Virus record (IMG/VR): IMGVR_UViG_3300035501_000580
DNA from: a virus
Taxonomy: Duplodnaviria > Heunggongvirae > Uroviricota > Caudoviricetes
Strand: one strand, 5' to 3'
Length of the DNA stretch: 64,000 bases
Shown: positions 42,830 to 63,997 of the stretch, one piece after another
Layout: each line of letters starts with the position of its first letter
Numbering within the stretch: the stretch's first letter is position 1
Notes under the pieces: generated by a model
Seen by the model: the letters and a program-made list of their open reading frames with translations, nothing else
What the model was told of the DNA's origin: nothing
Database searches by the model: none
Translations under genes and position numbers: made by a program

Positions 42830-43300
42830 TTATCGTCGGCCTCTACCACCGTTATTATGTTGTTGTGTATTCGGTTTCCCCTGTGGTCGGTTGTTAGATT
42901 TATTTTGTCTAACTTGTGGTCGGTTGTTGTGTCGAGGTTGTGTTCTATATTTAGGTTGGTATCCACGAGGCCTATCATAATAATGGTGTCGTGAATGATT
43001 GTAGAAAATCCATCTCTTTACTGGGACAAAATTCCTAATAAAAATACCACTTTGATTATATAGACCTACCTCAATACCACAAGGTAGAAGTTCCCAATAC
43101 ACATTACTTGGAATAGTTCCCACAATGTGATATGAATAAAACCCATCATTCACAAAGGCCGGGTCATTGATAAGTCCGGTGATGACATAATCATAATAAA
43201 CTGGTCGATAATCACTGTCAACACTCTGAGCCACCACACATGATGTCAGTCCAATAAAAGACATCAATAGACAAACTATGAATTTTCGCATTGTCTTCAT
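42830..43300 (-). CDS. secreted/lipoprotein-like protein with Arg/Gln/Asn-rich C-terminus (156 aa)
   Basis: signal peptide, LTSC. Confidence 0.45.
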   Translation of the reverse strand: MKTMRKFIVCLLMSFIGLTSCVVAQSVDSDYRPVYYDYVITGLINDPAFVNDGFYSYHIVGTIPSNVYWELLPCGIEVGLYNQSGIFIRNFVPVKRWIFYNHSRHHYYDRPRGYQPKYRTQPRHNNRPQVRQNKSNNRPQGKPNTQQHNNGGRGRR

Positions 43301-44070
43301 TTATTTAACCATTTATTTTTTAAGTCTTCTCTGTTTTCTTTGTTAGCAATCTCATAAGAAACAATATCCCATACACTTCTGGTATATTCCTGTCCTTCTG
43401 GGTTTACTTTAACTACTTGTGATTTGTAGATGAAACGACCAAACTTTTTATCATCAGAAACCAAATTCCAATCATTTCCAGTCTGTTCCAAACACAACTT
43501 AACTTGTTCATCTGAATTGTGTCCTCTCAGGGTGTTGTGTGAGAGATATGTCTGACAAAACTGATTCTTTGAGTTCTTAATACAATCTATCTGACGGTAT
43601 AAGAACCAAGCTAACATATCATTCTCATTAGGAACAACCCATACCTTACAGTCGAACACATAATCTTTCATTTCAAAGATGTGGTCAAATCTGGGGACAA
43701 GTTTCAACTCATATTCAATCATCAACTTTGTGAAGTATGATGTTGCAATAGAGGGAATGATGGACAAAAGTTTACACATTCTACCATCAAAGGGTACACA
43801 GGTTTCATTAGTGTCTCGAATGACAAGACTAATTTCATCTGATTGAACAAAAGCACCTACACAATTTTGGATATTCTTACATAGATACTTCGCAGTTTTA
43901 TTCATCATCTCAATAAACTGCTCATCAAATGGTTTCTCAAATTTGTTTTTGATTAATGTGGAAAAATTCTTACCATCAATCATAACCATAATGTAACCAT
44001 TTGGAAGAAGTCGATAATCAGTCAGACTTCTGTAATACTCACATTTTTCTTTTAGGGTTCGGAAAATCAT
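43297..44070 (-). CDS. Thg1-like protein (tRNA-His guanylyltransferase family / 3'-5' polymerase), 257 aa
   Basis: RLLPNGYIMVMIDGKNFS ... KPFDEQFIEMMNKTA ... AFVQSDEISLV aligns with Thg1 conserved blocks (RLLPN.WIVVRIDGR.F ... KPND ... GQSDE.S). Confidence 0.7.
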   Translation of the reverse strand: MIFRTLKEKCEYYRSLTDYRLLPNGYIMVMIDGKNFSTLIKNKFEKPFDEQFIEMMNKTAKYLCKNIQNCVGAFVQSDEISLVIRDTNETCVPFDGRMCKLLSIIPSIATSYFTKLMIEYELKLVPRFDHIFEMKDYVFDCKVWVVPNENDMLAWFLYRQIDCIKNSKNQFCQTYLSHNTLRGHNSDEQVKLCLEQTGNDWNLVSDDKKFGRFIYKSQVVKVNPEGQEYTRSVWDIVSYEIANKENREDLKNKWLNK

Positions 44071-44150
44071 AACAATTAATTTTGAATTTCACTATAAAAA
44101 TAACAAACTCAGCCAAGTTTAAGTTAACATTGACTGAGTTTTTACAATTT

Positions 44151-45284
44151 TTAGTAATTCATTATCATTATGTGTGTGACGTTCGTGTCATTTCTACCCA
44201 TAAAATTGACTTGGTATTTCTTGTCAAACGTCACAATCCTGATTCCGGGTTTGTTATACAGGTCATAAATGAAATCTGTATATTTAATATCTACCATCCA
44301 CTTAGCTTTACATTCATTGATAAGATAGTTCGCTAATCTAATTTGGTCATCCTTTGTAAATTCATTCTGGGCATAAGTGGAGAAGGTACTGTCATAAGGA
44401 GGATCCAAGAATATAAAATCATTCTCGGTTGGATTACATTTCTTCAAAAATTCCTCAAAGTCAAGATTGAATATAGAGGTCTTATTGAAATGTTCCATCA
44501 CCTCATCTGACTTGTAATAATTAGTTTTACTTGATAATGATTTTTTATTATATCCCATTCCTCCATAGGGTACATTAAATTCACCATTGTCATTATACCT
44601 AAACATCCCTGAGTAAGCATAGTTCCTAATAAAAAAATACAAGGCACAGTGGAGAGTTCTATCTTGTTTAGTTAGTTTCTCATCATTATACAAAGTTCGA
44701 TAAGTCATATACAGAGCAGAGTGAATGGCGGTTTGTATATTATCATCAGCCATCATTAGGTCAAGTTCAGTATTATTCTCATCCAACTTTTTCATTCGTT
44801 TCATCTTGCGAAATAAATTCGTTTTGAGTTCTTGAATAAAAGTCCAATTAGTTTTCTTAAATGAATCAGGACAGATACAATCAATATTATCTTTATAGTC
44901 TTCACAATAAGCATCAATCATATCTTTTACTCTACTCTCACGAATGACATCTTTCCAGAATATTGAGTATATACCATCAACTAAGTATTTTTTGGATGTG
45001 AGAAATAAATGTTTTACTAACCCCCAAGACTTAATAATATCTCCAACATACTCAAAGAATTGATTATCAGAGGTTTTAATACATTTATATAGGTCTGTCA
45101 ATTCCCACGAAAAGTCATTGATATAGTATTCATTGGCTTCTACACCCATGAATACAGAACCTCCACCCACAAATGGTTCAAAGTATCTATCAAATTCAGG
45201 GAGGTTGGGAATGATATATGGTAATTCTTTTTCTTTACCACCAGTATATTTAATTATAGGTGATAGTCCGGTACTTCTTTCCAT
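44151..45284 (-). CDS. DNA adenine N6-methyltransferase, Dam family (377 aa)
   Basis: motif I FEPFVGGGSVF and motif IV FLDPPY. Confidence 0.75.
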   Translation of the reverse strand: MERSTGLSPIIKYTGGKEKELPYIIPNLPEFDRYFEPFVGGGSVFMGVEANEYYINDFSWELTDLYKCIKTSDNQFFEYVGDIIKSWGLVKHLFLTSKKYLVDGIYSIFWKDVIRESRVKDMIDAYCEDYKDNIDCICPDSFKKTNWTFIQELKTNLFRKMKRMKKLDENNTELDLMMADDNIQTAIHSALYMTYRTLYNDEKLTKQDRTLHCALYFFIRNYAYSGMFRYNDNGEFNVPYGGMGYNKKSLSSKTNYYKSDEVMEHFNKTSIFNLDFEEFLKKCNPTENDFIFLDPPYDSTFSTYAQNEFTKDDQIRLANYLINECKAKWMVDIKYTDFIYDLYNKPGIRIVTFDKKYQVNFMGRNDTNVTHIMIMNY

Positions 45285-45285
45285 A

Positions 45286-45885
45286 TTACAAATGATGCCA
45301 GTGTTTTCTACAAACTGATTTATATGTTACATTACCTTGTTCGATTTCTACACTCGGACCTCCATATTCGATTTCACCATTGACAAATCTAATATGACAA
45401 ATAGCTTTTCCATCACATCTATCAATCTCACAAGGGGTATCAATCTCAATAAATTCATCAGCAAGTGCCAATAAATGTTTACTCCCTTCAAATAACTCAC
45501 CATTAATGTCAGTTTTTAGACCATAACAAAAGACATCAATACCTCTAATGTCGGCAATATCACATAGAGTTAACACATCTTCTCTTGTCAAAAACTGAGC
45601 TTCATCAACAAAAAGAACCCCAAAATCAAGTAATGATAAGGATTCTCTAAGGTCTTCAAAATAATATGTGGGTTCTTCATTTTTCGTAATTCGTGATTTC
45701 GTTACACCCCAACCAATGAATTTAGTGTCATTCCCAGTTGTTTCTCTGGTGTCAACACATGGTTTTACAATAATTGGATTTTTTCTTCGTCGTTTGTATG
45801 AATCAAATTGGGTTAACATTTTAGATGTCTTACCTGAACCCATACAACCATAATTAAATACTATCTTACCCATTCGTTTCTTCAA
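45286..45885 (-). CDS. tdk: thymidine kinase (199 aa)
   Basis: P-loop GCMGSGKTS, KPCVDTR, VDEAQFL, C-terminal zinc cysteines. Confidence 0.8.
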   Translation of the reverse strand: MKKRMGKIVFNYGCMGSGKTSKMLTQFDSYKRRRKNPIIVKPCVDTRETTGNDTKFIGWGVTKSRITKNEEPTYYFEDLRESLSLLDFGVLFVDEAQFLTREDVLTLCDIADIRGIDVFCYGLKTDINGELFEGSKHLLALADEFIEIDTPCEIDRCDGKAICHIRFVNGEIEYGGPSVEIEQGNVTYKSVCRKHWHHL

Positions 45886-46199
45886 TTTCTTTTTTAATGT
45901 AATATGTCAATCCCCATACATTGTCATAGGTCACTCCACACAGTTCCCACCCCTGTCTACCAAGTGTGTTCAACTGGGCTTCTGAAACCTCCTTGTTGGT
46001 TCTAACTATTTTGTACTTATATCTTTTCATAACCTAAACATAACAAAAAAGAGAGAGGTCATGCGACCCCTCTCATGTTAAATTTTCTCAACCATCCAGT
46101 CAATCCAATCATCAAGTGAAAACAGGTAGTTCTCCGCTGACTCTAAATCATAAAACTTCCCAAAACTACCTAAACCATAAACATTTACTAAGGTATACA

Positions 46200-46421
46200 T
46201 CACCAACAACTAACATCAGTAATGTCCTTTTCAACATTACAGTAAACACATCCGATTAAGACTGATGAACCAAGACCTCCGGGAATGAACTTATAATAGT
46301 AATGTTCACCTGTTGCGGGGAGGTTTCCATTAGCGAAGGAATGAGGACACACTTTCTTATGTTCCTCCATAAAGGCCAACGCTTCCTTTTCTTCTTCGTC
46401 GTTTAATTCAAAAGTCATCAT
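46200..46421 (-). CDS. hypothetical Cys-containing small protein (73 aa)
   Basis: ORF. Confidence 0.4.
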   Translation of the reverse strand: MMTFELNDEEEKEALAFMEEHKKVCPHSFANGNLPATGEHYYYKFIPGGLGSSVLIGCVYCNVEKDITDVSCW

Positions 46422-46423
46422 AA

Positions 46424-47566
46424 TTAATATCCTATTGTTGAACCTTCATATGTACGGTTCAACTGATTATTCACTTTATAGAACACACAACACTTAGGTA
46501 TATCTTTAAGTTTTGTTGCTCCTATATATGTCATTGTACTTCTCAATCCACCAAGAAATTCCTCATTTACATCATCAACTGAACCTACATATGGTACCAA
46601 ACTAACACGGCCTTCACTGGCTCGATACTTACGTTTTCCATCACCAAATTTTTCCTGAGCCAGTGATGAACTCATACCATAGAACAACTTGAACTTTTTG
46701 GTTTCATATACTTTTTCATGATTAACTACACCCATGACATAATTAACCACCTCTGTTGTTCGTTCATTTGTGAGGTATGTCTTTTCAACTATTTCTCCAT
46801 CAGCTTCCGTTGTTCCAGCATACAAACTACCAATCATGATAAAATCCGCACCTGCTCCAAAAGCCTTACCAATATCACCCGGACAAGTAATTCCACCATC
46901 AGAACAACACATACCCCCCACTTGGTGAGCCGCATCCGCACATTCTATGATAGTTGATAATTGAGGGCGACCTACACCAGTTTGTTTTCTCGTGATACAT
47001 TGTCCACCACCACCAATTCCAGCTTTGATTATGTCAGCTCCCGAAAGGATAAGGTCTTCAACAATATCACCAGTAACAACATTACCAACCATCAAAAGAC
47101 AATTAGGATATACCTTACGAATATCAATGACCAGTTGTTTTACCTGTGGAATATAACCATTAGGGACATCAATACAAATGGACATACTATAGTCTTTACC
47201 ACTGAAAACTTCTTCATTCAGTTGTTTCAGTTTATCAACACCATTGTCTTTTAGTCCAATAGAAATAAATGTTCGTTTTCGTTCATCGTCAGACAAACTC
47301 TTGAAGAAGTCAATAAGGTCATTAACTTCATGGTGTTTATGCAGACAGGCAAACAAACCAACTTTTAACATCTTCCTCGTCACATCAAAGTTACCGATTG
47401 TACCCATATTAGCCTGCATTATACCAGTTCCTTTAATCGTATAAGGACACCATTTGAATTTATACTCTCGTGTTATATCTGCATCTTTACGACTGGCGAT
47501 AGTGGAACGACGAGGCTTAATCAAAACATCTGAAAAGTCTAACTCTGTTTTTTCTAATATCTGCAT
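46424..47566 (-). CDS. guaC: GMP reductase (IMPDH/GMPR family TIM barrel), 380 aa
   Basis: VLIKPRRSTI, IGGGGQCITR.QTGVGRPQLS, CSDGGI, LFYGMSS ... YRA.EG ... GGLRS blocks align with GuaC. Confidence 0.75.
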   Translation of the reverse strand: MQILEKTELDFSDVLIKPRRSTIASRKDADITREYKFKWCPYTIKGTGIMQANMGTIGNFDVTRKMLKVGLFACLHKHHEVNDLIDFFKSLSDDERKRTFISIGLKDNGVDKLKQLNEEVFSGKDYSMSICIDVPNGYIPQVKQLVIDIRKVYPNCLLMVGNVVTGDIVEDLILSGADIIKAGIGGGGQCITRKQTGVGRPQLSTIIECADAAHQVGGMCCSDGGITCPGDIGKAFGAGADFIMIGSLYAGTTEADGEIVEKTYLTNERTTEVVNYVMGVVNHEKVYETKKFKLFYGMSSSLAQEKFGDGKRKYRASEGRVSLVPYVGSVDDVNEEFLGGLRSTMTYIGATKLKDIPKCCVFYKVNNQLNRTYEGSTIGY

Positions 47567-47585
47567 TTTTATTTTATTTTAGGAT

Positions 47586-48125
47586 TTACTTTTTACCACC
47601 AGAATAACCATGATCGATTACATCTTCAATGGCTTCTGTTTCTTCAATCTCAAACTGACCAAGACGATATGATGAAAAGTAGAATAGGTCACTTACTTCA
47701 TCAAAAATTCCACTAATTTCTCTAAGACAATTAGTCGCCTTGATATATGCCTTACGTTTAGCTCGACTCATTGCGATACGATAACCTGTGACATCATTGT
47801 TCTCATCATCAGGAGAAAGAGTTGCCACACCTGTTGACTTAGCTTTCCAAATATTCTTCTTGAAATCTCTCTTATACCCATACTTAGTCAGGATTGTTGC
47901 AATGGGTTCAGGAAGTGTTTTCAAACCAAGATTTTCCAACTCAGCTTCCAGTTTTGTGAATTTGAAACCAGACCATACCGATACAATAGTCCGATTTTCT
48001 ACAGTCTTTTTGGAAATACTCGTGTCATCAAAAGTGAGCTTTATAAATTTATTATCCATATCTTTATAAGTATTAATTATTAAATTACATATTAAACATA
48101 ACAAAAAAAGGATGAAAATGGACAT
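47586..48125 (-). CDS. secreted hypothetical protein (179 aa)
   Basis: signal peptide. Confidence 0.45.
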   Translation of the reverse strand: MSIFILFLLCLICNLIINTYKDMDNKFIKLTFDDTSISKKTVENRTIVSVWSGFKFTKLEAELENLGLKTLPEPIATILTKYGYKRDFKKNIWKAKSTGVATLSPDDENNDVTGYRIAMSRAKRKAYIKATNCLREISGIFDEVSDLFYFSSYRLGQFEIEETEAIEDVIDHGYSGGKK

Positions 48126-48636: not shown

Positions 48637-48753
48637 TTGTTTACCATCGTGGGTTGCCAGAAGATGATTTTTTACAGACTTTGTTCACCAAGAGTCCGAA
48701 TAGAACACACATCCATTGCCTTTCAGATAGCCTCGGTTATCGGCGGAGAGGGA

Positions 48754-48838
48754 GGGATTCGAACCCCCGGACCAATAATGGCCAACGGTTTTCAAGACCG
48801 CCGCAATCGACCACTCTGCCACCTCTCCAAAATTTGTT
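48754..48838 (-). tRNA. tRNA-Ser(TGA), class II
   Basis: anticodon loop CTTGAAA, long variable arm, T-arm GGGGG-TTCGAAT-CCCTC. Confidence 0.85.
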
Positions 48839-49398
48839 TAACCAAATTTTTTAATTGTATCTTGAACTCGATTTAACCAACCTGTCAAGAATTGTTTTTG
48901 TGAAGGATTTTTAGCAACATTATCCTTATATCTTTGGATTCTTTGATTACCTAATTCCTTCGCAATTTCATCTTTATGAACTCCATTAGCATATGAAATT
49001 GTTGTTTGTCCAATCTTACCATCTACAACAATATTCACCTTACATACTTTATTTATGGCTTGTTGTAATAATTTAACTGAACCTACACAACCACTATTTA
49101 CTGCATGATCATATAAATGAGCTGAGATTAATAAAGAATCAAAACTATCAATCTTCATAGTGTTATAAAAATTAGTGAGATAAAATTCCTCTACTAATGT
49201 TTGTAATTGTAGATTGTTTATTTTTTGATTCCATTTTAGAGGTTTATTCTTATCTACAATACTCCATCCAGACCACTTAGGCCAATTCTTTCTGGAAATA
49301 CCACAGTAAGTTTCTCCACCTCTATCTCCTTTTACATTTGCATATCCACCTTCAATAGTTAAAGTTGCGTCAATAATTTGTTTCGCTTTGGTTGTCAT
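48838..49398 (-). CDS. endolysin-type lysozyme, glycoside hydrolase family 108 with C-terminal PG-binding-like domain (186 aa)
   Basis: N-terminal EGGYANVKGDRGGETYCGIS = GH108 hallmark EGG(Y/F).N...D.GG.T..GI. Confidence 0.75.
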   Translation of the reverse strand: MTTKAKQIIDATLTIEGGYANVKGDRGGETYCGISRKNWPKWSGWSIVDKNKPLKWNQKINNLQLQTLVEEFYLTNFYNTMKIDSFDSLLISAHLYDHAVNSGCVGSVKLLQQAINKVCKVNIVVDGKIGQTTISYANGVHKDEIAKELGNQRIQRYKDNVAKNPSQKQFLTGWLNRVQDTIKKFG

Positions 49399-49780
49399 TT
49401 GTTTGTTTTACATATTGTGTATGGTCAGAATAACCAAGGATGTAAATTATTAAAATCTCTTTCTTCACTTACATTTGGTTCATTTAACATCTGACGAATT
49501 TGGTAGTCAGTAAAGTTTCTCAACTGTTTTTCAAAAGTAACATCTTCAAATCGCATAGGTAGAAAATTTTAAGGTTAGTATTAATGCGGAGAGCAGTGGA
49601 CACGAACCACATACGATTACTCGTACAATCGGTTTAGCAGACCGTCCTTTTACCTCAAAAGTTTACTCTCCATAATCAACAAGATTCAAAATCAAAACCA
49701 CCTATATAAATTTATGTACTAAAAAGTTGCGGTATGAATCTTTACTTCATCTAATATATTTATGTAATTGTGAGCCCGGT

Positions 49781-49853
49781 GGGACTCGAACCCACGACCC
49801 CCACATTAAAAGTGTGGTGCTCTACCATCTGAGCTACGGACCCCAACCTAATG
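49781..49853 (-). tRNA. tRNA-Lys(TTT)
   Basis: anticodon loop CTTTTAA; canonical D and T arms. Confidence 0.85.
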
Positions 49854-50441
49854 TTTGTCTTTTATTGTCCATGTGATATTTCTACCAAAACCTCTATTCG
49901 CTCCTTTATATGTAGAAGTGAGTGAGTGACAATTTGGACAAACCAATCTTAAATTATTCTCAGAGTTATTTTCTGAGTTTCCATCTATGTGATCGATTTC
50001 TAAAGGAATAGTGTTTGTATATGGGTTTACTTTTGACCAACCACATTCACAACATTTATAATCAAACTTTTCAAATATATAACGTCGTAATTGCTTAGGT
50101 AATTGTCCCCATTTTGTTGACTTAGCGATTGAGTTATCTAATTTGTAATGTTCCACCCACTGTTTATATTCAAAGTCCTGTTGACATTTATTTGAACAAT
50201 ATTTACATCCGGACTTTATTTCTTTTCCACAATATTTACAGTAGGTTTTCTTACCTTGACCTTTATTGACAGGTTGTTTTCCTGAGTTTTTAGACCGAAC
50301 AGGTAACTCAAAACCTCTATTCCTCATTACTTTCTTGATATTGTTACCAGAACATCCAAATAGACGACCAATTTCCTCATAAGAAAGTTTATCTACAAAT
50401 ATATATCTCTTTAATATGTCAATGTTCTCAGTCCAATCCAT
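49848..50441 (-). CDS. HNH homing endonuclease (197 aa)
   Basis: C..C zinc pairs and PLEIDHIDGNSENNSENNLRLVCPNCHSL. Confidence 0.75.
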   Translation of the reverse strand: MDWTENIDILKRYIFVDKLSYEEIGRLFGCSGNNIKKVMRNRGFELPVRSKNSGKQPVNKGQGKKTYCKYCGKEIKSGCKYCSNKCQQDFEYKQWVEHYKLDNSIAKSTKWGQLPKQLRRYIFEKFDYKCCECGWSKVNPYTNTIPLEIDHIDGNSENNSENNLRLVCPNCHSLTSTYKGANRGFGRNITWTIKDKH

Positions 50442-50443
50442 AG

Positions 50444-50516
50444 AGTTGACGAGCGGAGTCGAACCGCTGAATAATGGTTTTGCAGACCAGTCCCTTAACC
50501 ACTTGGGTACGTCAAC
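50444..50516 (-). tRNA. tRNA-Cys(GCA)
   Basis: anticodon loop CTGCAAA, T-arm AGCGG-TTCGACT-CCGCT. Confidence 0.8.
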
Positions 50517-50526
50517 ATTGTTTAGG

Positions 50527-50608
50527 TGCTCATGAAGGGACTCGAACCCATACGTCTTTTGACAACAGATCCTAAGTCTGTCGCGTCTACCAATTCCGCC
50601 ACATGAGC
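50527..50608 (-). tRNA. tRNA-Leu(TAG), class II
   Basis: anticodon arm ACAGA-CTTAGGA-TCTGT, long variable arm. Confidence 0.8.
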
Positions 50609-50614
50609 AGTCTA

Positions 50615-51313
50615 TTAAGTTCTTTCTTGTTTAGATGATTGAGATGTTTTCAAGATAGAAGCGTCATACATTTCAGGAGAAGTAATAATATCTCTACCTC
50701 TACTTGGTGCATTATTCTTCATATTATCTAACATTGATTGAAATTGTGATTTTCTATCATCACTTGTTTTCAATACATCATCTCTTTCACCACTGGAAGC
50801 CAACTGATAAACTGTATTAGGAGCACCTGATTGAACAGTTCTTGAAGATGCACTATTATATACATTAGAACTTCCAGATAAATAATCAGTTGTTGTAGTA
50901 GGTATGGTAATGTTAGTATTTATTACGCCATTATATCTAAAAAAGTGTATAGTTGTCGTACCTAAACTCGCATATACCATTACACTATTTTGTTTGAAAT
51001 CTGATATCCATTGACTACCAGAATACATACAAATATGACCGGGAGCACTTTGGTTGTAAGTAGGTTTCATATATACTGCAATATCACCGGGTTGAGGTGT
51101 ATATGTACTGGCATTACTACTACTCATCTGGGCAACTTCATTAAAACCTATTGAGGGTAAATAATTAATATATTTCCAAGCCCAGTCAGGTCTTCCTGAT
51201 GTGGATAACCCTCCAGATTCAATGGCCATTCTGACATACTTCGCACACTTACCTTGTGATTTAACAGAGGCTCTACTTGCTAATGAATTTACACATTTTT
51301 GTAAATCAAACAT
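50615..51313 (-). CDS. CHAP-domain peptidoglycan hydrolase with S/T-rich C-terminal region (232 aa)
   Basis: Cys block GKCAKYVRMAI and His block GDIAVY ... GHICMY. Confidence 0.65.
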   Translation of the reverse strand: MFDLQKCVNSLASRASVKSQGKCAKYVRMAIESGGLSTSGRPDWAWKYINYLPSIGFNEVAQMSSSNASTYTPQPGDIAVYMKPTYNQSAPGHICMYSGSQWISDFKQNSVMVYASLGTTTIHFFRYNGVINTNITIPTTTTDYLSGSSNVYNSASSRTVQSGAPNTVYQLASSGERDDVLKTSDDRKSQFQSMLDNMKNNAPSRGRDIITSPEMYDASILKTSQSSKQERT

Positions 51314-51337
51314 AATTCACCTATTCCAATATATCGG

Positions 51338-51408
51338 TTGGAATATCAAGGCTCGAACTTGAAACGACAGAACCAAAATCTGTAGTGTTACCATTACACC
51401 ATATTCCA
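51338..51408 (-). tRNA. tRNA-Gln(TTG)
   Basis: anticodon arm ACAGA-TTTTGGT-TCTGT. Confidence 0.8.
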
Positions 51409-51416
51409 ATGTTTAG

Positions 51417-51490
51417 CGGTGTATATGGGACTCGAACCCATGACCCCCTGCGTGACAGGCAGGTATTCTAACCATCTGAACTAATACACC
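51417..51490 (-). tRNA. tRNA-Asp(GTC)
   Basis: anticodon arm CCTGC-CTGTCAC-GCAGG. Confidence 0.85.
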
Positions 51491-51497
51491 TCACTAT

Positions 51498-51968
51498 TTA
51501 ATAATTATCATCTTTATCTACGGCGACACCTTCCCAAATACCTAAAAGGTTTTCGTCAGTTTCAGGGTTTTCGATAAAGTATTCTTCAACTTTTTCTTTA
51601 GTTTTATTATTAAATTTATAGACAGTTATTGATTTTACGGTAGGACATCTATCTTCTTCTTCTAACTCAGCAATGTCCCATACAACATCAACAATTCTAT
51701 AAAAATCCCAAAAGAACACACCTTCACCAAACCATTGTTTACCTACATAAAAGGGAGTATACATCTCAAGATGTCTTAACACATCTTCTTTATATCTGGT
51801 TTTTATTTCTTCAATTTCTTGTTCTCTTCTAGAACGATACGAACCAGTGTCTTTTATGTGATTTAATTGGTCTATATACATTGTTCTTATATATGAACAA
51901 ATTCTTTCATAATGTTCATGGAAATAATTGATATTTCTACGAGCTTCTTTAATGTGACTTTTTATCAT
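51498..51968 (-). CDS. hypothetical protein (156 aa)
   Basis: ORF. Confidence 0.5.
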   Translation of the reverse strand: MIKSHIKEARRNINYFHEHYERICSYIRTMYIDQLNHIKDTGSYRSRREQEIEEIKTRYKEDVLRHLEMYTPFYVGKQWFGEGVFFWDFYRIVDVVWDIAELEEEDRCPTVKSITVYKFNNKTKEKVEEYFIENPETDENLLGIWEGVAVDKDDNY

Positions 51969-51995
51969 GATTGATTAAAGGTTAAAATATATGTG

Positions 51996-55090: not shown

Positions 55091-55098
55091 AACTCATC

Positions 55099-55524
55099 TT
55101 AAATATTTATGATTTTCTCAAACGAAAAATCTTCGTAATTCAAAGGTTCATATTGGTTATGTGTTTCCTTAAATGGTACATTAACCTTTATGGCATTTCT
55201 ATTTTGAAGTTTCTCGATAGGTATTAACATCAATATTTTAGATTCTACATTATAGATTGAAAAATAATCAATGTCATTACAATCATATTTTTTAAAGTAG
55301 TTGTGACCATTCCTAATAGTTCCACTTCTTAAATCTACGGTAAAACCATCTTTCTTCATTTTATATGAAGTTTTAACCTGTATTTTATTAAGTTTACCAT
55401 TAAATTCGGCTATCAAATCAGCACTTTCATTGTCACCAAATGGGATATAAACAGGAACTCCTAACTCCACGAATTTGGTTAATGTAATTGCTTCTCCAAT
55501 ATTTCCAACTCTTTTACTCTGCAT
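55099..55524 (-). CDS. putative PD-(D/E)XK-type nuclease (possible homing endonuclease), ~141 aa from Met at 55524
   Basis: GEAITLTKFVELG ... PFGDNESADLIAE ... KIQVKT resembles D..E.K restriction-fold core; start trimmed to avoid tRNA-Pro overlap. Confidence 0.4.
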   Translation of the reverse strand: MQSKRVGNIGEAITLTKFVELGVPVYIPFGDNESADLIAEFNGKLNKIQVKTSYKMKKDGFTVDLRSGTIRNGHNYFKKYDCNDIDYFSIYNVESKILMLIPIEKLQNRNAIKVNVPFKETHNQYEPLNYEDFSFEKIINI

Positions 55525-55526
55525 AG

Positions 55527-55599
55527 TCGGGATGACACGACTCGAACGTGCGACCTCACCACCCCAAATGGCAAATTCTACCAACTGAAATACATCCCG
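55527..55599 (-). tRNA. tRNA-Pro(TGG)
   Basis: anticodon loop TTTGGGG, T-arm GCACG-TTCGAGT-CGTGT. Confidence 0.7.
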
Positions 55600-55610
55600 A
55601 AAAATTTTAA

Positions 55611-55688
55611 TGGTCAGGTGGGAAGGACTCGAACCTCCAACAGTACGACCTACTTCGGCCGCCCTCTAACCAATTGATCTACCACCTG
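55611..55688 (-). tRNA. tRNA-like gene with genomically encoded CCA; good acceptor/T-arm, irregular D- and anticodon arms; 5' part overlaps the last 8 codons of HNH gene
   Basis: acceptor CAGGTGG/CCACCTG, T-arm GGAGG-TTCGAGT-CCTTC, ACCA tail; anticodon stem closes a 6-nt loop. Confidence 0.4.
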
Positions 55689-56253
55689 TTTTTCTAATAC
55701 CTTGTATGATTTTTCTTGTCAATCCAAAAAACTCAGCCACTTTTTCCCAAGAATTAAGTTCCAGATATTTTTGATTTACTTCATCACAAGAAGGATACCT
55801 TTTATCTTTCAATCTACATTCAGGAGAACAATAGATTTTACCTTTCATTCTGGTGAACAACTTACCACAACATTTACATTTAGTATAAGCTGTTTTCTTA
55901 GGTGTGATAAAAGATGATTTATTGGAATCTTCTATGACTTCATTAATCTCATCCATGTTAAGTCCGGGGTTGTGAATTTCCCTATGACAATTAGCACACA
56001 ATAATTGACATTTATCCAACTCTTTGTTAAGTATGTCAATTCTGGTATTTGCGAAGTGATGGATATCTAATTGAAATAACTTAGTAGAAGGGTTGATGTG
56101 GTGAAAATCGAGAGCTGATATATTATGATTATATCCACAGATTTCACATTTACCACCCTTAAAGATGATAGCCTCATATTTTCTTTTGAGACCTCTTATC
56201 TTCTGGTTAGTATATTTATTAGGGTTGTCCATAACTTCAAAATTTGTGTCCAT
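55666..56253 (-). CDS. HNH homing endonuclease (195 aa)
   Basis: KCEICGY ... DFHHINP ... LLCANCHREIH; second zinc module CKCCG ... CSPEC. Confidence 0.7.
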   Translation of the reverse strand: MDTNFEVMDNPNKYTNQKIRGLKRKYEAIIFKGGKCEICGYNHNISALDFHHINPSTKLFQLDIHHFANTRIDILNKELDKCQLLCANCHREIHNPGLNMDEINEVIEDSNKSSFITPKKTAYTKCKCCGKLFTRMKGKIYCSPECRLKDKRYPSCDEVNQKYLELNSWEKVAEFFGLTRKIIQGIRKTGGRSIG

Positions 56254-56524
56254 CCAAGGAATTGAACCTTTGTGGTTGAAAAATGTCTAACCACCTACGA
56301 CCTCCGGAGAGTCATCCCTATTACCAAACAGGGCAAGAACAGACAAGTGACCATTGTTTTGGTACAATGGAGAAAACCCGTACAAGGCTACCAATTAGGC
56401 GGCGGCGTACATGACCTTTTCGGGTCGTGAAAAATTGTTGCCAGTTAAATAGGCCATAGACTTCTCCTTCATTCCTACTCATATGTCATCAATACCAGTC
56501 ATCCCCTTATATTTATTTTACTTT

Positions 56525-56560
56525 GTGGAGATGGTGGGGATCGAACCCACGTCTAACATA
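56525..56560 (-). pseudogene. tRNA 3'-half fragment (variable loop + T-arm GTGGG-TTCGATC-CCCAC + acceptor CATCTCC-A)
   Basis: no matching 5' half (GGAGATG) nearby. Confidence 0.4.
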
Positions 56561-56589
56561 CTTTCTTAATATTATCAACAAAATCTATA

Positions 56590-56663
56590 GTGGTCCGGAT
56601 AGGGCTTGAACCTATGACCTTCTGATTATGAGTCAGCTGCTCTAACCAACTGAGCTACGGGAC
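56590..56663 (-). tRNA. tRNA-Met(CAT), second copy (distinct sequence; elongator/initiator/Ile2 not resolvable)
   Basis: anticodon loop CTCATAA, T-arm ATAGG-TTCAAGC-CCTAT. Confidence 0.8.
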
Positions 56664-56858
56664 CGAAATACAAAGTTCAATAAATGGATATGAGTTATAA
56701 TGAGTTGCAATAAATTGCGGTATGAACTTTTATGTATTTTAATGAAAATTAATAGACGAATTTATCAAGATACTATCACTCTATGGCAGAGGATTATTGC
56801 GGTCTGTATCTTTATTTAAGTTTCAACAAATTAAATATAACAAAATGATTTCAATTTT

Positions 56859-57317
56859 CTACTTTTTTGTCAATTTTTCTTTGACTATTTGAGAAGCCAT
56901 TGCACCATCAACTTGACCTGTATAAGTTTTGTTGATGTATCCCATGACTTTTCCCATACCTGACATATCCGTTACTGAAAAATCTGAAATAACTTGGTCA
57001 ACGATTTTTTCAACTTCATCTACTGTCAACATTTTAGGGAGATATTCACTAAGGACACGATATTCTCTGATTTCCTTATCCGCTAATTCAGGTCTATGAT
57101 TAACTCGATAAATTTCACAAGTTTCCAGACGGGACTTAGCTAACTTTTGAATAATCTTAATAATGTCTTTATCATCAGGATTTTTATTTCCATTCTTAGC
57201 TGTTTTCAATTCCATGATAGATGTTTTGATATTACGAATTGTATCTGCTCGTAATTCATCTCTGGATTTGATAGCTTCCATTAAATCCTTTTGAAGTTTT
57301 TCTTCAAGAGTGTTCAT
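56859..57317 (-). CDS. YqeY/GatB-C-terminal-domain-like protein (152 aa)
   Basis: LEEKLQKDLMEAIKSRDELRADTIRNIKTSI ... LSEYLPKMLTVDEVEKIVDQVISD ... MGKVMGYINK ... GQVDGAMASQIVKEKL aligns along whole length with YqeY family. Confidence 0.65.
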   Translation of the reverse strand: MNTLEEKLQKDLMEAIKSRDELRADTIRNIKTSIMELKTAKNGNKNPDDKDIIKIIQKLAKSRLETCEIYRVNHRPELADKEIREYRVLSEYLPKMLTVDEVEKIVDQVISDFSVTDMSGMGKVMGYINKTYTGQVDGAMASQIVKEKLTKK

Positions 57318-57337
57318 CTGTAAAAATTTTTAGTTAG

Positions 57338-57411
57338 TTGGACTGATGGGATTTGAACCCATGACCCCTACATTATCAGTGTAGTGCTCTAACCAACTGA
57401 GCTACAGTCCA
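57338..57411 (-). tRNA. tRNA-Ile(GAT)
   Basis: anticodon arm CTACA-CTGATAA-TGTAG. Confidence 0.85.
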
Positions 57412-57624: not shown

Positions 57625-58244
57625 TTAGCATACTACTCTATATTTCTATAGCCAATATTATTAATATTGTTGTAGTCTGGACTTTGTCTTCACCATTTCA
57701 GGTAGGAGTGCGTAAAGTCTCTACGGAGTCTCTTATAAGTAAGTTCCCTCGGCGTTTTCTTCATCATTATATTGTGTATAACATGCTAAGACGTTCACCG
57801 ATATAGCACTCTCCAGTTTATGTGTTAATCCATGATGTTGTATTTCAACAGATAATTTACCTCTACACTTACGTGAACAACAAGTACAATTTAGTTTACT
57901 TGGTTTTTGTAAGTGTGTTTGTCGTTTTTCTCTGATAAATATTTCACCACACCACGGACATTGTAATTTTACCATTTGTTTACCTTTTAATAAACCATGT
58001 AATTTACAATGTTCTTTATTCACCATAACTTCAAGATTTTCTATACGATTATCTTTCTTATTATGATTTTTGTGATGAACAACTTCATTACTATTCAAAA
58101 CTCGACCAAGATAATTTTCCATAATTACTCTATGTTCTAAAACATATCCAGCATCTGATGCGTTTGGATGTTCAGGACATAATACATAATTGTAATCACC
58201 TTTACTTATAACTTTTTGAATATTCCACATAAACGCTCCTATTA
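57625..58244 (-). mobile_element. ~620-bp intervening element inside tRNA anticodon loop carrying HNH endonuclease ORF (candidate group I intron or HEG insertion)
   Basis: exon halves on both sides; SD AGGAG + ATG begin 3 nt and 17 nt (respectively) after the anticodon loop. Confidence 0.5.
57733..58230 (-). CDS. HNH homing endonuclease (165 aa) encoded within the tRNA-interrupting element
   Basis: SNEVVHHKNHNKKDNRIENLEVMVNKEHCKLHG (HNH) and C-terminal CPWCG ... CTCCSRKC zinc module. Confidence 0.7.
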   Translation of the reverse strand: MWNIQKVISKGDYNYVLCPEHPNASDAGYVLEHRVIMENYLGRVLNSNEVVHHKNHNKKDNRIENLEVMVNKEHCKLHGLLKGKQMVKLQCPWCGEIFIREKRQTHLQKPSKLNCTCCSRKCRGKLSVEIQHHGLTHKLESAISVNVLACYTQYNDEENAEGTYL

Positions 58245-58283
58245 TTCAAAGACTGTTGCTCTATCCAACTGAGCTACCGGACC
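58245..58283 (-). tRNA. 5' exon of split tRNA (acceptor GGTCCGG, D-arm GCTC-AGTTGGATA-GAGC, anticodon stem ACAGT + loop CTTTGAA; nominal anticodon TTG)
   Basis: reverse complement of 58245-58283. Confidence 0.6.
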
Positions 58284-59065: not shown

Positions 59066-59896
59066 TTTTGATGATGATAGTATTTGTTTCTCTATCAGTT
59101 TATATGACCTAAAAAACATATATGGGAGGATATTCAAATCAGAAAAACCATATGTTCCGCACGAAAAAAAATCGTGAACTTCAATAGGAACAGTGGATTC
59201 GTCTTTCAATACCGCAACATCCAAAGTATATTCTCTGAGATAGGGGATATAGGCTGACAATACATCTATCATTTCTTTGATTATATTGACATCAGGGAAT
59301 ACAGTAAAATCACCTGAGTAGTTTTGAAGTCCACTTAGTTTTTGATTATGGATAAAACAACGATACTCAGATACTATTTCTTTATCACCTATCAGTAACT
59401 CGCTAATTTGGACAGTATATTTATTATCGAAGTAATCTCTAATCTCATAGTCATAGTTTTTACCATTTGATTCGTCTTTAATGAAATGGTTAGACTTCGC
59501 GAATAGAGGTTTTTTATTATATACTGAACTGGGATAGACATTTTTAACCACTCTCTTAGCATAGTTAAACAAACATTCTGGGAGGTTTCTTGGTTGAATA
59601 TTTACATCTACATCGAGTTTAACATATTCAGACATATATTTTTTAAGGAATAATGTGACAAACTCGACGGAACCAATAGGGATAACTCGTTCGATATCAC
59701 ATTTACAAGTTAGTATATCCAATTCATTCAGTTCATCAAATGTACAGAAAGTTGTTCCCATTGAATCTGGAACACACCAATTTTGATATTTCACAGCATT
59801 GACAAGTTCCAGTTCAAAGTCATATATCACCTGATTAGTTTCCGGAGATACTTGACATAAAAACAATATAAAATCACTCTTTTTCTCCATGATCAA
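59060..59896 (-). CDS. hypothetical protein (278 aa), possibly ATP-grasp-like
   Basis: weak; segment ISELLIGDKEIVSEYRCFIH reminiscent of ATP-grasp central strand. Confidence 0.35.
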   Translation of the reverse strand: MIMEKKSDFILFLCQVSPETNQVIYDFELELVNAVKYQNWCVPDSMGTTFCTFDELNELDILTCKCDIERVIPIGSVEFVTLFLKKYMSEYVKLDVDVNIQPRNLPECLFNYAKRVVKNVYPSSVYNKKPLFAKSNHFIKDESNGKNYDYEIRDYFDNKYTVQISELLIGDKEIVSEYRCFIHNQKLSGLQNYSGDFTVFPDVNIIKEMIDVLSAYIPYLREYTLDVAVLKDESTVPIEVHDFFSCGTYGFSDLNILPYMFFRSYKLIEKQILSSSKN

Positions 59897-60434
59897 GTTT
59901 CTGCATGAATTTAATTAGTTTTTCTTTGGCTACTTTACAATGGTCATAGTCATAAAACATATTTCCCATAAATTCCCTGACTGCATCTTTCTTTACATCT
60001 CTACCAAATTTTTCCATATGAATTCCACCATCAGATGAAATAAAGTAGTAGTATGATATGGGAATGATTTCATACTTTTTATATTCTCGTTTATTTAGTT
60101 TATTGATGGTAAAAGATTCATTAGGTTCTCTTTGGTTTTTCCACCTTACAATGAGTTTATTTGGTTCATCAGACACGATAACACCATCATTTAGAATATC
60201 TTTACCATTATATCTAACAGTAATAAATTGTCCCTCTTTGTATTCAGGTATCCAAGGTGAGACTAACTTAAAATAGTCCTTATTACTAAAATCCAGACAA
60301 GGGGGAAGTTCAATACCACCATTTGTAGTATTAACTATTCCATCATTTGAGAACACTATTTTATCACCTGTTTTTATTTTTAGAGAAGGGATAGGTGCAA
60401 TCGCTTCATATGTCTTGTATTCTATATCTTCCAT
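59874..60434 (-). CDS. hypothetical protein (186 aa)
   Basis: ORF. Confidence 0.5.
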   Translation of the reverse strand: MEDIEYKTYEAIAPIPSLKIKTGDKIVFSNDGIVNTTNGGIELPPCLDFSNKDYFKLVSPWIPEYKEGQFITVRYNGKDILNDGVIVSDEPNKLIVRWKNQREPNESFTINKLNKREYKKYEIIPISYYYFISSDGGIHMEKFGRDVKKDAVREFMGNMFYDYDHCKVAKEKLIKFMQKLDHGEKE

Positions 60435-62326
60435 TAATCTTCGTATAATTTAATTTCAACATTATTTTTCTTAGCTTTCGTCATTTTACTTGATGAACCT
60501 TCCAAGTCATTAGTGAACAAAATCTTAACCTCTTTCCATGATGTTGTTTCTACATATTGAGGATGAGCCTGCAACCACAATTTCTTGGTCTTATATGATG
60601 TATTACTGGGTTCACCTGTCATGATAATAGGAATTTTATTTTCCTTTGTTTCAGTCAAATATGGGACATTAAATCGTTTCATATATACCTTAACATCATC
60701 CAATCTCACGTCGTATAGAATAATATCAACAATAGAATTTGGAATACCATCATAAGATACATCAATTCCTGACAATTTCTTAGCTAACCAAAGTGAGTTC
60801 TTCGGACCACAGTTATCAAAACCAAGTGATTCAATTATCTCATTCATAGTTAATTTTGTTCGACGTTCTTTCAGTCCATTGATTATATTGGAGGTGGATT
60901 TACTTTGACCTAATTCCTGTTCAATAAGATTAAGTGATTCATCATCCATTAATTGAATAATGTTATCAGTGTTCTTAATCTCAAACAATTTAGAAGCTAC
61001 CTTTTCACCAATACCATCAATTTTCAAGACCTTTACTGAATTGATAAACTTAATATATAGTTCATCTTGGTCTGTCATTTCTTTCATTAGATGTTCACAA
61101 CCGGACTTTTCATCAGTTTTAATCCATGTACCACTTTTAGGTAGGTCATATTCATCAGAGTGTGTCAATATCTCATAACAGAAGGGAATAATATCACCAG
61201 CTAATGAAATACGGATAGATGAACCAATACCAACATGATTACTTTTTAGATAGTCAAGATTATGAAGGGATACTCGATTTACTTTTTTACCACCAAGTAT
61301 AACATCTTCACAAATACCAACAGGATAATACTCACCAGTTTTACCTACATTCCATTCAATAGATTTAACTTTAGTTTCAACAATTTCCGGTTTGAATTTG
61401 ATAGCAACACAATCTTCTTGACGGGCACGAGTATAATCACCTAAACGATTTTGACAGTTAGGTTTAATGACAAATCCATCAAGAGGCCACTGAGTCCTTT
61501 CTCTGAAATCATCATAATAATCATATATCTCATCAAAGTCATTTAAGTCATCATAACCAAAATTCATCGGACTTACTTGTTCACCCGGTGTAAATTGAGT
61601 TTGATAAGGTACTTCCATGATAAGACCATCAGAATATACTTCACGAAAATCATAACATACCCAAGATAAGTCATTCCTCATCTCTATCTGTTCAGGAGTT
61701 CCTTCCCAATCCTGTCCAAGTAAACCAGCGACAAAACTACGGGGCATGGTGAACTTGTCTGAATATTTTTCCTCAAACAAGCTTTTCATGATTAAACATT
61801 CTCCACGAACAACGAAATATTCTGGAAGTAGATTATACTCATCATCATTAACACAAGTATCAATCCACTCATATACACCATCAATAAAGTTTCGTTTCCA
61901 TTCCTGTTCAAACCACACTTTAATGTCTTTACCATATTCACCATCACCACGAGTAGAAACAGACACCAGTTTACCTTTATTATCTATGACTACCTCAAAT
62001 GAACATCCATCAAGTTTAGGTGTTGTTTGAAATCCCCAAGAAGATGACTTGACATTTTTAGATTTGTCCAGATACTTCTTCACTTCATCAGCATACTTCT
62101 TAAAGTCCACCTTTCCATTTTCATCTTCTTTAATCTGAATTTTGGAAAGTGAACCCATGATGAAAGGATGTTTTACTGTGTATGACTTTTGGTGATGTGT
62201 ACCAATATAACCTTTGTTTTCCAAGTTGAGTTGAGACTCTAACCTGTCAAACTCCAAGTCAGTCATAATGGGTTCTCCATTATAGTAGGCTTCCTTCGCC
62301 TCATCATATAATTCTTTATCTGTCAT
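60434..62326 (-). CDS. ligA: NAD-dependent DNA ligase (LigA family), 630 aa
   Basis: N-terminal YYNGEPIMTDLEFDRL (Ia domain), adenylation lysine motif KLDGCS, C-terminal HhH IDGIGEKVASKL. Confidence 0.7.
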   Translation of the reverse strand: MTDKELYDEAKEAYYNGEPIMTDLEFDRLESQLNLENKGYIGTHHQKSYTVKHPFIMGSLSKIQIKEDENGKVDFKKYADEVKKYLDKSKNVKSSSWGFQTTPKLDGCSFEVVIDNKGKLVSVSTRGDGEYGKDIKVWFEQEWKRNFIDGVYEWIDTCVNDDEYNLLPEYFVVRGECLIMKSLFEEKYSDKFTMPRSFVAGLLGQDWEGTPEQIEMRNDLSWVCYDFREVYSDGLIMEVPYQTQFTPGEQVSPMNFGYDDLNDFDEIYDYYDDFRERTQWPLDGFVIKPNCQNRLGDYTRARQEDCVAIKFKPEIVETKVKSIEWNVGKTGEYYPVGICEDVILGGKKVNRVSLHNLDYLKSNHVGIGSSIRISLAGDIIPFCYEILTHSDEYDLPKSGTWIKTDEKSGCEHLMKEMTDQDELYIKFINSVKVLKIDGIGEKVASKLFEIKNTDNIIQLMDDESLNLIEQELGQSKSTSNIINGLKERRTKLTMNEIIESLGFDNCGPKNSLWLAKKLSGIDVSYDGIPNSIVDIILYDVRLDDVKVYMKRFNVPYLTETKENKIPIIMTGEPSNTSYKTKKLWLQAHPQYVETTSWKEVKILFTNDLEGSSSKMTKAKKNNVEIKLYED

Positions 62327-62391
62327 AATATAATTTGATTAAAAAAGTAAAAGGAGATACCTTATAAAAGATACCTCCTATATTAATTTAG

Positions 62392-62474
62392 TACCAGCAC
62401 TGGGACTCGAACCCAGACAGCACAATTGCCAAGGGATTTTAAGTCCCTCGTGTCTACCATTCCACCATGCTGGC
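62392..62474 (-). tRNA. tRNA-Leu(TAA), class II
   Basis: anticodon arm AGGGA-CTTAAAA-TCCCT, long variable arm. Confidence 0.85.
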
Positions 62475-62496
62475 ATCCTTATATTTATGTAGAAGG

Positions 62497-62967
62497 TTAA
62501 TTTACCTTTTTGTTTTTACCTCTATAATTATCTGTAAGAGCATGACAATTTGGACATAATACTTGTAAATTATCTAATCTATTGTCACTTCGATTACCAT
62601 TTATGTGGTGTAGTTCTAATGGGATTGTTTCATTTTCCCATGTTGTCCTACCACACCTCTCACATTTACAATTTTTTAAACCTTCTCGTATAAGTCTATT
62701 TTTTAGTTTATATGAATTGTAATAACATCCATCAACTAATATTTCAGATAGAGGTTTGGTTTCTATTGGCTTGAATTTTAGTCCAACATTCCAACCTTGT
62801 CCTGTAAAATGTGAAATGTCTAAATTTAACTCTTTTATCTTTTTAGTCACAGTTTCATAATTACCACCAGCAGGAATTAAACCCAATGTTTTGATAACAC
62901 CTGCAATAGAATTATTTTCAGTGACTGCTTTGACAAATTGTTCATCAGTCCATTTCTTTTTAGACAT
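62497..62967 (-). CDS. HNH homing endonuclease (156 aa)
   Basis: CKCERCG ... [29 protein letters not shown]. Confidence 0.75.
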
Positions 62968-63010
62968 ATCTGAATTAAACTACATATTAAATATAACAAA
63001 AATACTTAGA

Positions 63011-63997
63011 TTATTTGGATTTCTTCATCTTTTTTTCATTTTTTACTTGTTTCAAAAGACTGGGAAGTTGTCTATAACATTCAGTTTCTGTTATCGTCGG
63101 TCGTGCGAAAGCTTGTTTTAATAGTTTATCCTTAATCTCCTGAACTTCTTTACATGGTTCTAACTCCAAACTATACATGATATCATCTCCACTAATAGGT
63201 AATTTATATCCAAACATAGGATTATTAATATGTTTCATGAAGTAATCGAATTGACCTGTTACATTGTGTTCAGGAGCATGGGACATATTATCACATTCGA
63301 TAAGTTTACACAGTCTGATATACATTTCGGTCGTACCACATTCATAAACTAACTTATTAAATGACTTTTCTTTCATCTTACAACAGTCATTTCCAAAGTT
63401 CTTAGTTCTCATGTGATTTCTTACCAACCAAGATACTTTTTTGACAGTTTTATTATCAAATTTGAGGTTGTATAACATTTTCTGGGCATACTTTACGGAA
63501 TAAACCTCATGTTCATAAAAATGTACTTTATTATCTTTACGAATTTGGGTTTCAATTTTTCCATAATCATGACAAATACAAGCCAACGCATTGATTAGGT
63601 CAGGTTCATAATGGTTCTGGTAGTATTCAAGAACGGCCATTGTGTGTTCATAAACGTCACCAAAATGATATTCGTTTTGTTCCATACCCATCATGTGTCT
63701 AAATGTGTTATCGACGAAATCCATTACTTTGGTTTCACATAAAGTTCTAACACCATAGACAGGATTTTTTGACACGAGGATTTTAGAGAACTCATCACGT
63801 ATTCTCTCTCTTGAAATGATATTAAGACCATATCTATTTTCGATTAGACCTTCATATGTTTTCTTATCAATATCAAAACCAAGGACAGTGGCCATACGAA
63901 TACATCTCATAATACGAAGTGGATCATCATTGAAAGTAGTGTTTACATCTTCCAAAGGACATCTAATGATTTTGTTCTTAATGTCATCCAATCCCAT
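63011..63997 (-). CDS. tRNA nucleotidyltransferase (CCA-adding enzyme) C-terminal body incl. HD-like region; N-terminal catalytic head lies beyond the window edge
   Basis: FNDDPLRIMRCIRMATVLGFDID = hallmark ED.LR.LRA.RFAA.LGF of class-II CCA enzymes/poly(A) polymerases; CHDYGK HD-like motif; ORF open at window boundary. Confidence 0.6.
   Translation of the reverse strand: MGLDDIKNKIIRCPLEDVNTTFNDDPLRIMRCIRMATVLGFDIDKKTYEGLIENRYGLNIISRERIRDEFSKILVSKNPVYGVRTLCETKVMDFVDNTFRHMMGMEQNEYHFGDVYEHTMAVLEYYQNHYEPDLINALACICHDYGKIETQIRKDNKVHFYEHEVYSVKYAQKMLYNLKFDNKTVKKVSWLVRNHMRTKNFGNDCCKMKEKSFNKLVYECGTTEMYIRLCKLIECDNMSHAPEHNVTGQFDYFMKHINNPMFGYKLPISGDDIMYSLELEPCKEVQEIKDKLLKQAFARPTITETECYRQLPSLLKQVKNEKKMKKSK

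Follow-up and report, generated by a model that had tools for sequence, protein, structure and literature searches.

Why should a bacteriophage carry, together with a large number of tRNA genes, members of protein families that act on both ends of tRNAs? The question is raised by a stretch of 64,000 nucleotides (here called the window) from the IMG/VR record IMGVR_UViG_3300035501_000580, a virus of the Caudoviricetes. A preliminary description of this DNA, made from the letters alone, had pointed out a Thg1-like protein, a YqeY-like protein and a CCA-adding enzyme and had suggested a previously undescribed module for counter-defence. The three open reading frames (ORFs), their positions on the minus strand and the motifs quoted for them all hold. 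We consider it probable that they are parts of a tRNA maturation-plus-repair toolkit, that is, of dispersed, co-oriented genes which make and maintain the phage tRNAs and which do not form one operon. The result is a sound annotation of a gene set known from jumbo phages, found in a new uncultured lineage, and not a new kind of system.

The clearest of the three assignments is that of the Thg1-like protein (TLP), a predicted 3'-5' templated nucleotidyltransferase of 257 aa encoded at 43297..44070 on the minus strand. The Pfam Thg1 family PF04446 matches the ORF with E=3.3e-29 (101.9 bits, where the cutoff is 29.2; positions 9-130 of a 130-position profile), which upholds the first assignment and leaves no unrelated fold in its place, and phrog_4717 'tRNA-His guanylyltransferase' matches it with E=6e-48. 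Its closest solved relative is the TLP of Bacillus thuringiensis (BtTLP, 4kgk, E=2e-18), and the eukaryotic Thg1 enzymes rank behind. An AlphaFold model made with 16 relatives (pLDDT 89, pTM 0.85) has its best structural match in BtTLP as well (4kgm/4kgk, TM 0.76/0.85). The top 32 matches to the model come from 4kgm, 4kgk, 7cv1, 3otc, 3wbz and 5axk, with E down to 9e-19; at E<1e-11 there are Thg1/TLP structures only, and the next unrelated fold appears at E>3e-3. Cas10 and cyclase structures fit the model poorly (E>4e-3, TM<0.3), and an mCpol/GGDEF-like cyclic-nucleotide synthase was rejected on these grounds.

The motifs IDGKNF (D32; MIDGKNF) and QSDEIS (D78, E79) align with those of BtTLP and of the C. 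albicans and yeast Thg1 proteins, and D32, D78 and E79 are invariant across 16 phage relatives with 53-67% identity. We take D32 of the xDG motif and D78-E79 of the SDE motif to be the metal-binding carboxylates of the Thg1 superfamily. At the position of the eukaryotic HINNLYN the phage protein reads IKNSKNQ, which is near the SKNSISM of BtTLP; the aligned segment is RQIDCIKNSKNQ in the phage TLP, RQVDCHINNLYN in C. albicans Thg1 and RQQDASKNSISM in BtTLP. Because IKNSKNQ replaces HINNLYN, as in BtTLP, we call the protein a TLP and not Thg1 proper. By sequence and predicted fold it is of the bacterial/archaeal type.

The TLP stop codon is overlapped by 4 nt by another minus-strand ORF (42830..43300), which encodes 156 aa with a lipoprotein-like signal peptide and a tail rich in Q, N, R and P. 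This protein has no family match, and the relatives have different genes at that position. A scan for promoters and terminators near the TLP gene gave sites no more frequent than in shuffled sequence, and for this reason operon boundaries around the gene cannot be drawn.

The second enzyme lies at the window's edge. On the minus strand, 63011..>64000 encodes the C-terminal 329 aa of a 472-aa protein, a putative class II CCA-adding enzyme with an HD phosphohydrolase domain. The part up to position 64000 matches PolyA_pol_RNAbd (E=3e-14), HD (E=9e-8) and phrog_2244 'tRNA nucleotidyltransferase' (E=2e-40), and of the conserved motifs it shows only motif D and what follows. The N-terminal 143 aa are beyond the window end. 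They could be recovered from the public contig L002, which was found via a neighbouring HNH protein, is 99.98% identical to window 59743..64000 (4258 nt) and has the complete gene at L002:8539-9957 with PolyA_pol, RNAbd and HD. The recovered head domain matches PolyA_pol with E=7e-27 and has GGSVRD...DIDLV (motif A), RRDFTINAL (motif B) and DDPLRIMR (motif D), so that the GG.VRD head which had been expected past position 64000 does exist; the HD motif CHDYGK is also present in the 472-aa protein.

The domain content agrees with the class II assignment, and CCA addition is the predicted activity. The NCBIfam scores of the 472-aa enzyme are 214 bits for tRNA_CCA_actino (cutoff 439) against 108 for pcnB, both below the curated cutoffs, and the HD domain is a feature of bacterial Cca and not of PcnB. 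Scores and HD domain together favour a CCA-adding/repair enzyme. The names of PDB relatives do not settle the specificity, because several of them were deposited as 'poly(A) polymerase' or 'polynucleotide adenylyltransferase'.

What would such an enzyme act on? There are 22 tRNA genes in the window, which serve 17 amino acids and leave out Arg, Val and Trp; the set is indeed large, and calling it full, as was done at first, was an overstatement. Nineteen of the genes form the main array (48742..57411, minus strand; ARAGORN and Rfam agree), with HNH and PD-(D/E)XK endonuclease genes and small ORFs between them, and the tRNA-Leu(TAA) at 62391..62474 (minus strand; ARAGORN, Rfam) is an outlier of the set. 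CCA is encoded in only three of the 22 genes (His, Met at 52224 and Glu). Since the other 19 are without it, CCA addition is an obligatory maturation step for the phage tRNAs. The same scarcity of encoded CCA is seen in tRNAs beside the TLP in other phages (1/21 in L027, 0/10 in L059, 0/7 in L062 and 2/11 in L082). There is furthermore a permuted (two-piece) tmRNA at 56395..56585 on the minus strand (ARAGORN 56304..56615; Rfam RF04321, 60.7 bits with a gathering score of 47), whose tag peptide according to ARAGORN is GNNFSRPEKVMYAAA* and whose acceptor piece is likewise without encoded CCA. It lies directly downstream of the tRNA-Met at 56590..56664.

CCA-less tRNA genes are a simpler reason than counter-defence to carry a CCA enzyme. 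This leads to an explanation in which maturation is everything: the CCA enzyme, TLP and YqeY would raise the processing capacity for a burst of phage tRNAs, through CCA addition to CCA-less precursors and quality control of tRNA-His G-1, and would have no anti-nuclease role. The obligatory CCA addition speaks for it, as does the position of the genes in or beside the tRNA array, and genome papers call them tRNA maturation genes (PMC5852040, PMC6102473).

The tRNA-His(GTG) fits this explanation less well, as its G-1 is already encoded. The gene lies at 51994..52069 on the minus strand, or 51994..52070 with G-1, and reading of the sequence and the acceptor-stem table give a G at 52070 opposite C73 as well as an encoded CCA, as had been noticed at first sight. 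Encoded G-1 and C73 are found in all five independent tRNA-His genes beside phage TLPs (window, L010, L027, L062 and L082). The TLP as supplier of a non-encoded G-1 was therefore rejected. A role in 5' editing as in protist mitochondria was rejected too, because no demanding 5' acceptor-stem mismatches or overlapping genes were found. The same five tRNA-His genes all have ATG directly 5' of G+1 (52070..52072 in the window), and the common A-3 and T-2 may have arisen by chance or be tied to RNase P site selection.

More difficult for an explanation by maturation only are the further genes of the segment. YqeY itself (56859..57317, minus strand, 152 aa, GatB C-terminal-like and presumed to bind tRNA) is an assignment that stands, with PF09424 at E=5.4e-38 over almost the full profile (positions 2-143 of 143), phrog_1460 and the solved YqeY proteins 8xjg (E=7e-18) and 1ng6 (E=2e-13). 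YqeY is functionally uncharacterised, and its link to tRNA comes from similarity to GatB and GlnRS domains (PMC13374519). The toolkit exceeds the three proteins first listed. Downstream of the TLP by 3.9 kb, at 38155..39429 on the minus strand, there is a 424-aa Pol-beta nucleotidyltransferase of the RlaP family (PF10127, E=2.7e-19; phrog_388, E=6e-48), a family of RNA 3'-end repair enzymes which extend damaged RNA 3' ends by 1-2 NMPs (PMC12776372). RlaP is likewise found about 4-5 kb downstream of the TLP in the relatives L010 and L012. On L002 the genes immediately upstream of CCA, a short way past the window end, encode an RNA ligase (phrog_968, E=8e-43; PF21189 OB domain, E=6e-10; weak similarity to Naegleria Rnl5), a Pnk-like P-loop kinase (phrog_505, E=2e-13; bacterial Pnkp kinase domain, E=5e-14) and two metallophosphoesterases. 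The RNA ligase, Pnk-like kinase, phosphoesterases and RlaP are break-repair genes without a normal role in maturation. With these genes in the same segment, we regard maturation alone as rather unlikely to be the whole explanation.

A toolkit for maturation plus repair can accommodate both groups of genes. The CCA enzyme would complete the 19 tRNAs and the tmRNA whose genes are without CCA, and by analogy with the E. coli enzyme it might also rebuild 3' ends that are short of part of the CCA, while its HD domain would take off 2',3'-cyclic or 3' phosphates. The TLP, if it behaves like characterised TLPs, would add missing tRNA 5' nucleotides by Watson-Crick pairing with the 3' strand, including the restoring of tRNA-His G-1 opposite C73. 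RlaP, RNA ligase, Pnk-like kinase and metallophosphoesterases could form a heal-and-seal pathway for tRNAs with internal breaks, and YqeY is probably a tRNA-binding accessory. The likely benefit would be that translation continues while host RNases, including the tRNases of abortive infection, damage tRNAs. Of the original proposal of repair or maturation, the family calls and the action on tRNA 5' and 3' ends are supported, and the role in counter-defence is one that we infer.

Several points weigh against this reading. Sequence cannot separate CCA-adding, A-adding and poly(A) specificity. A 5' acceptor-stem defect for which a TLP would be needed is seen in none of the 22 tRNA genes: overall there are two acceptor mismatches, U1.U72 in one tRNA-Met and C6.C67 in the other, and the former is the sole mismatch at 1:72. 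In the literature that could be searched there was no biochemical or genetic work on a TLP or a CCA enzyme from a phage. The TLP, YqeY and CCA genes are furthermore spread over 20 kb, with 19 kb between TLP and CCA, and all 15 genomes of the Prevotella Lak megaphages have both TLP and CCA, at 42-136 kb from each other. In a sample of 80 IMG/VR TLP loci with 10-kb flanks, a tRNA lies within 10 kb of the TLP in 12 loci, tRNA-His in 3 and CCA in 3; neighbours were searched with single-sequence seeds, and these counts are lower bounds. When the sample was dereplicated to 64 loci for a distance test, a recognisable repair gene was found within 4 kb of the TLP in just 17.

These distances raise the question whether there is any functional unit at all, or whether three independent accessory genes lie together incidentally in a large 'auxiliary' region of a jumbo phage. 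Genes for a NAD-dependent DNA ligase, an ATP-grasp protein, HNH endonucleases, an endolysin-like protein, GMP reductase, thymidine kinase and a Dam methylase are interspersed, and unrelated genes separate TLP, YqeY and CCA. A test for an operonic module was negative, as the three genes are not adjacent and their linkage is not kept across genomes. The idea of a discrete module has to be given up, given the 20 kb span with DNA ligase, lysis-type, nucleotide-metabolism and homing endonuclease genes in it and the distances in Lak. However, repair and tRNA-protein genes show a distance-dependent excess around the TLP. In the 64 loci 24 of them lie within 4 kb and 12 farther away, where 43% would be expected near (binomial p=0.003, a test that corrects only partly for relatedness among loci), and the control genes are 2 near against 10 far. 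Of these 36 repair and tRNA-protein genes, 34 are on the TLP strand. The order GMP reductase - TK - TLP - PIF1-like helicase - RlaP is kept in relatives at 57-63% identity, and in the window the minus strand carries every gene between 38 and 64 kb. Incidental co-location seems to us somewhat unlikely. As the real unit we see a loose region of about 35 kb, in one orientation throughout, where tRNAs and tmRNA occur along with maturation enzymes and genes for heal-and-seal RNA repair; RlaP and the RNA ligase are about 27 kb apart in the same genome, which is a loose association and not an operonic one.

The survey also shows which genes the TLP keeps company with. At least one of RlaP, CCA, RNA ligase, Pnk-like kinase, KptA, YqeY or metallophosphoesterase lies within 10 kb of it in 32/80 loci, and in a 473-kb relative the gene directly upstream of the TLP is that of an RNA 2'-phosphotransferase (KptA), with an RNA ligase gene at a distance of 5 kb. 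The TLP travels with RNA-repair genes and not specifically with tRNA-His or CCA. That it accompanies repair genes, KptA among them, more often than tRNA genes across viral contigs is a further argument against maturation alone. A different conclusion might be that the phage TLP works mainly on non-tRNA substrates, such as other small RNAs or the phage tmRNA, as some eukaryotic TLP paralogues do. Most phage TLP loci are indeed without a tRNA gene within 10 kb and no tRNA 5' defect needs a TLP here, and distinct functions are described for Dictyostelium TLPs (PMC5041481). However, the phage protein is nearest to BtTLP by sequence and fold, its neighbours are tRNA- and RNA-repair genes, and repair of tRNA 5' ends is what every TLP characterised from bacteria and archaea does (PMC4820378). 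We find a mainly non-tRNA substrate very unlikely. For the toolkit as we understand it, the neighbourhoods that tie the TLP to RlaP, RNA ligase, RNA 2'-phosphotransferase and YqeY provide a concrete set of candidate partners and of well-conserved proteins.

The genes are not new to phage biology, and the claim of a previously undescribed system does not survive. A TLP homologue is found in 143 GenBank phage records, the nearest being those of the Lak megaphages at 45-47% identity, and many are already annotated. A CCA enzyme is found in 273 phage records; the one of the present phage is 34-36% identical to that of Lak. At least 257 IMG/VR contigs have a TLP relative, a metagenomic protein collection holds more than 1000, including the clade with 53-67% identity on contigs of 216-473 kb, and the TLP, YqeY and CCA families all have PHROG entries. 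The XacN1 genome paper of 2018 lists a tRNAHis guanylyltransferase, a Glu-tRNA amidotransferase-like protein and a CCA nucleotidyltransferase with 56 tRNAs (PMC5852040), and that of Atu_ph07 in the same year has a similar gene list beside a large tRNA set (PMC6102473). Iyer et al. 2021 (Viruses 13:63; PMC7824862, section 3.4.9) described jumbo-phage RNA repair by RNA ligases, polynucleotide kinases, phosphoesterases and RlaP and made the same proposal, in which the CCA-adding enzyme restores tRNA 3' ends and Thg1 the 5' ends against host RNase effectors.

The finding would matter more if a phage TLP or CCA enzyme proved to rebuild tRNA ends damaged by host immunity. Defences that attack this end of the tRNA exist. 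Cas12a3 of Bacteroidetes, described in 2026, shortens tRNA 3' tails by 2-4 nt; according to its authors it cannot be evaded by means of viral tRNAs, and they know of no viral counter-measure (PMC12851939). In addition, toxSAS enzymes pyrophosphorylate the tRNA CCA end (PMC11559606). Phage CCA-adding and end-repair enzymes are obvious candidates against tail cleavage of the Cas12a3 type. One can go further and suggest that the CCA enzyme with its HD domain, the TLP and RlaP are a viral answer to immunity that attacks the tRNA acceptor end and not the anticodon loop. This is distinctly unlikely in our estimation; if it were true, the phage CCA enzymes of the 273 GenBank records would be a widespread class of anti-defence proteins.

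Regarding the phage itself, the window belongs to a jumbo-phage genome of about 350 kb, since L002 is 99.98% identical to its end (59743..64000) and a 351,598-bp contig is 99.5% identical. The phage is uncultured and its setting is that of gut- or rumen-type metagenomes. No nucleotide-level match to window 43000..48000 was found among GenBank phages, and there is for this reason no deposited close relative; the lineage is distinct from the published jumbo phages and an ordinary new example of a known gene set. In species-representative genomes the nearest TLP relatives (44-62% identity) are on contigs of metagenome-assembled genomes (MAGs) from gut and rumen, for example L093 (JBGVNW010000068.1, 360,293 bp). 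The MAG labels are inconsistent (Bacilli, Clostridia, Mycoplasmatota, Bacteroidales, Paludibacteraceae), and these contigs are probably jumbo-phage contigs misbinned into MAGs; an attempt to infer the host of the phage from them gave no assignment.

Other features of the window deserve mention. A small second tRNA cluster at 12797..13268 (minus strand; ARAGORN, Rfam) consists of a tRNA-Lys(CTT) and two tRNA-like genes with the anticodon AAA. These two, at 13195..13268 and 12797..12871, have the same unusual anticodon loop UUAAACA with C at position 37. The repeat CATGTCGTGAGA occurs five times in 12797..13373 on the minus strand, with one copy mismatched and 0.27 expected, and one copy is just upstream of each of the three genes of the cluster. 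The genes and repeats may represent decoy or variant tRNAs, or else a leader/promoter unit in several copies. Mobile genes are seen in several places. A 620-bp segment at 57629..58248 with an HNH ORF (57733..58230) is missing from L001 and L003, which are otherwise 97.7-99.5% identical, a presence/absence polymorphism such as mobile homing endonucleases typically show. Five further HNH or PD-(D/E)XK ORFs are interspersed among the tRNA genes. The GMP reductase gene (46424..47566, minus strand) is intact in the window, and in L010 (955..3599) and L012 (645..3280) it is represented by two IMPDH-domain ORFs with a Hint/NUMOD3 ORF between them, a layout that points to the insertion of an intein or homing endonuclease. 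Farther away on the minus strand, 10337..11248 weakly resembles Acb3, a family of CBASS inhibitors (PF25187, E=3.5e-7, barely over the gathering score), and 15217..17127 encodes a 636-aa SIR2-domain protein (E=4e-15); these are possible anti-defence or NAD-related genes.

How does the set compare with systems that are known? With BtTLP (4KGK/4KGM) and the TLP of Methanosarcina acetivorans (5AXK-5AXN) the phage TLP has the Pfam family, the fold and the catalytic D...DE in common, and it also has the TLP-type sequence at the HINNLYN position. It differs from these bacterial and archaeal proteins in being phage-encoded, with an identity of about 24-25% in structural alignment and an activity that is predicted, and in belonging to a large gut/rumen jumbo-phage clade whose members are 53-67% identical to each other. 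The CCA enzyme has the same head, body and HD layout as E. coli Cca, a multifunctional enzyme of CCA addition and repair, and matches NF008137 over residues 26-389 (E=6e-30). Its score is far under the equivalog cutoff (104 vs 451 bits), and its best NCBIfam match is the actinobacterial-type CCA enzyme.

The closest systems as a whole are the sets of other jumbo phages, those described by Iyer et al. 2021 and those of Xanthomonas phage XacN1, Agrobacterium phage Atu_ph07, Bacillus phage G and the Prevotella Lak phages. They have comparable genes and the same published interpretation, and their common components are many tRNAs, a CCA enzyme, Thg1-like and GatB/YqeY-like proteins, RlaP, RNA ligase, kinase and phosphoesterases. 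The RNA ligase is one point where the present phage departs from them, being of the phrog_968 type with an Rnl5-like N-terminal OB domain and not Rnl1, Rnl2 or RtcB. A further parallel is phage T4, where Pnkp and Rnl1 mend the tRNA-Lys cleaved by PrrC. The logic is the same, as phage enzymes heal and seal tRNA damage inflicted by the host. T4 mends breaks in the anticodon loop and has no TLP or CCA enzyme, whereas here TLP, CCA enzyme and RlaP, as predicted end-rebuilding nucleotidyltransferases, are added to this repertoire.

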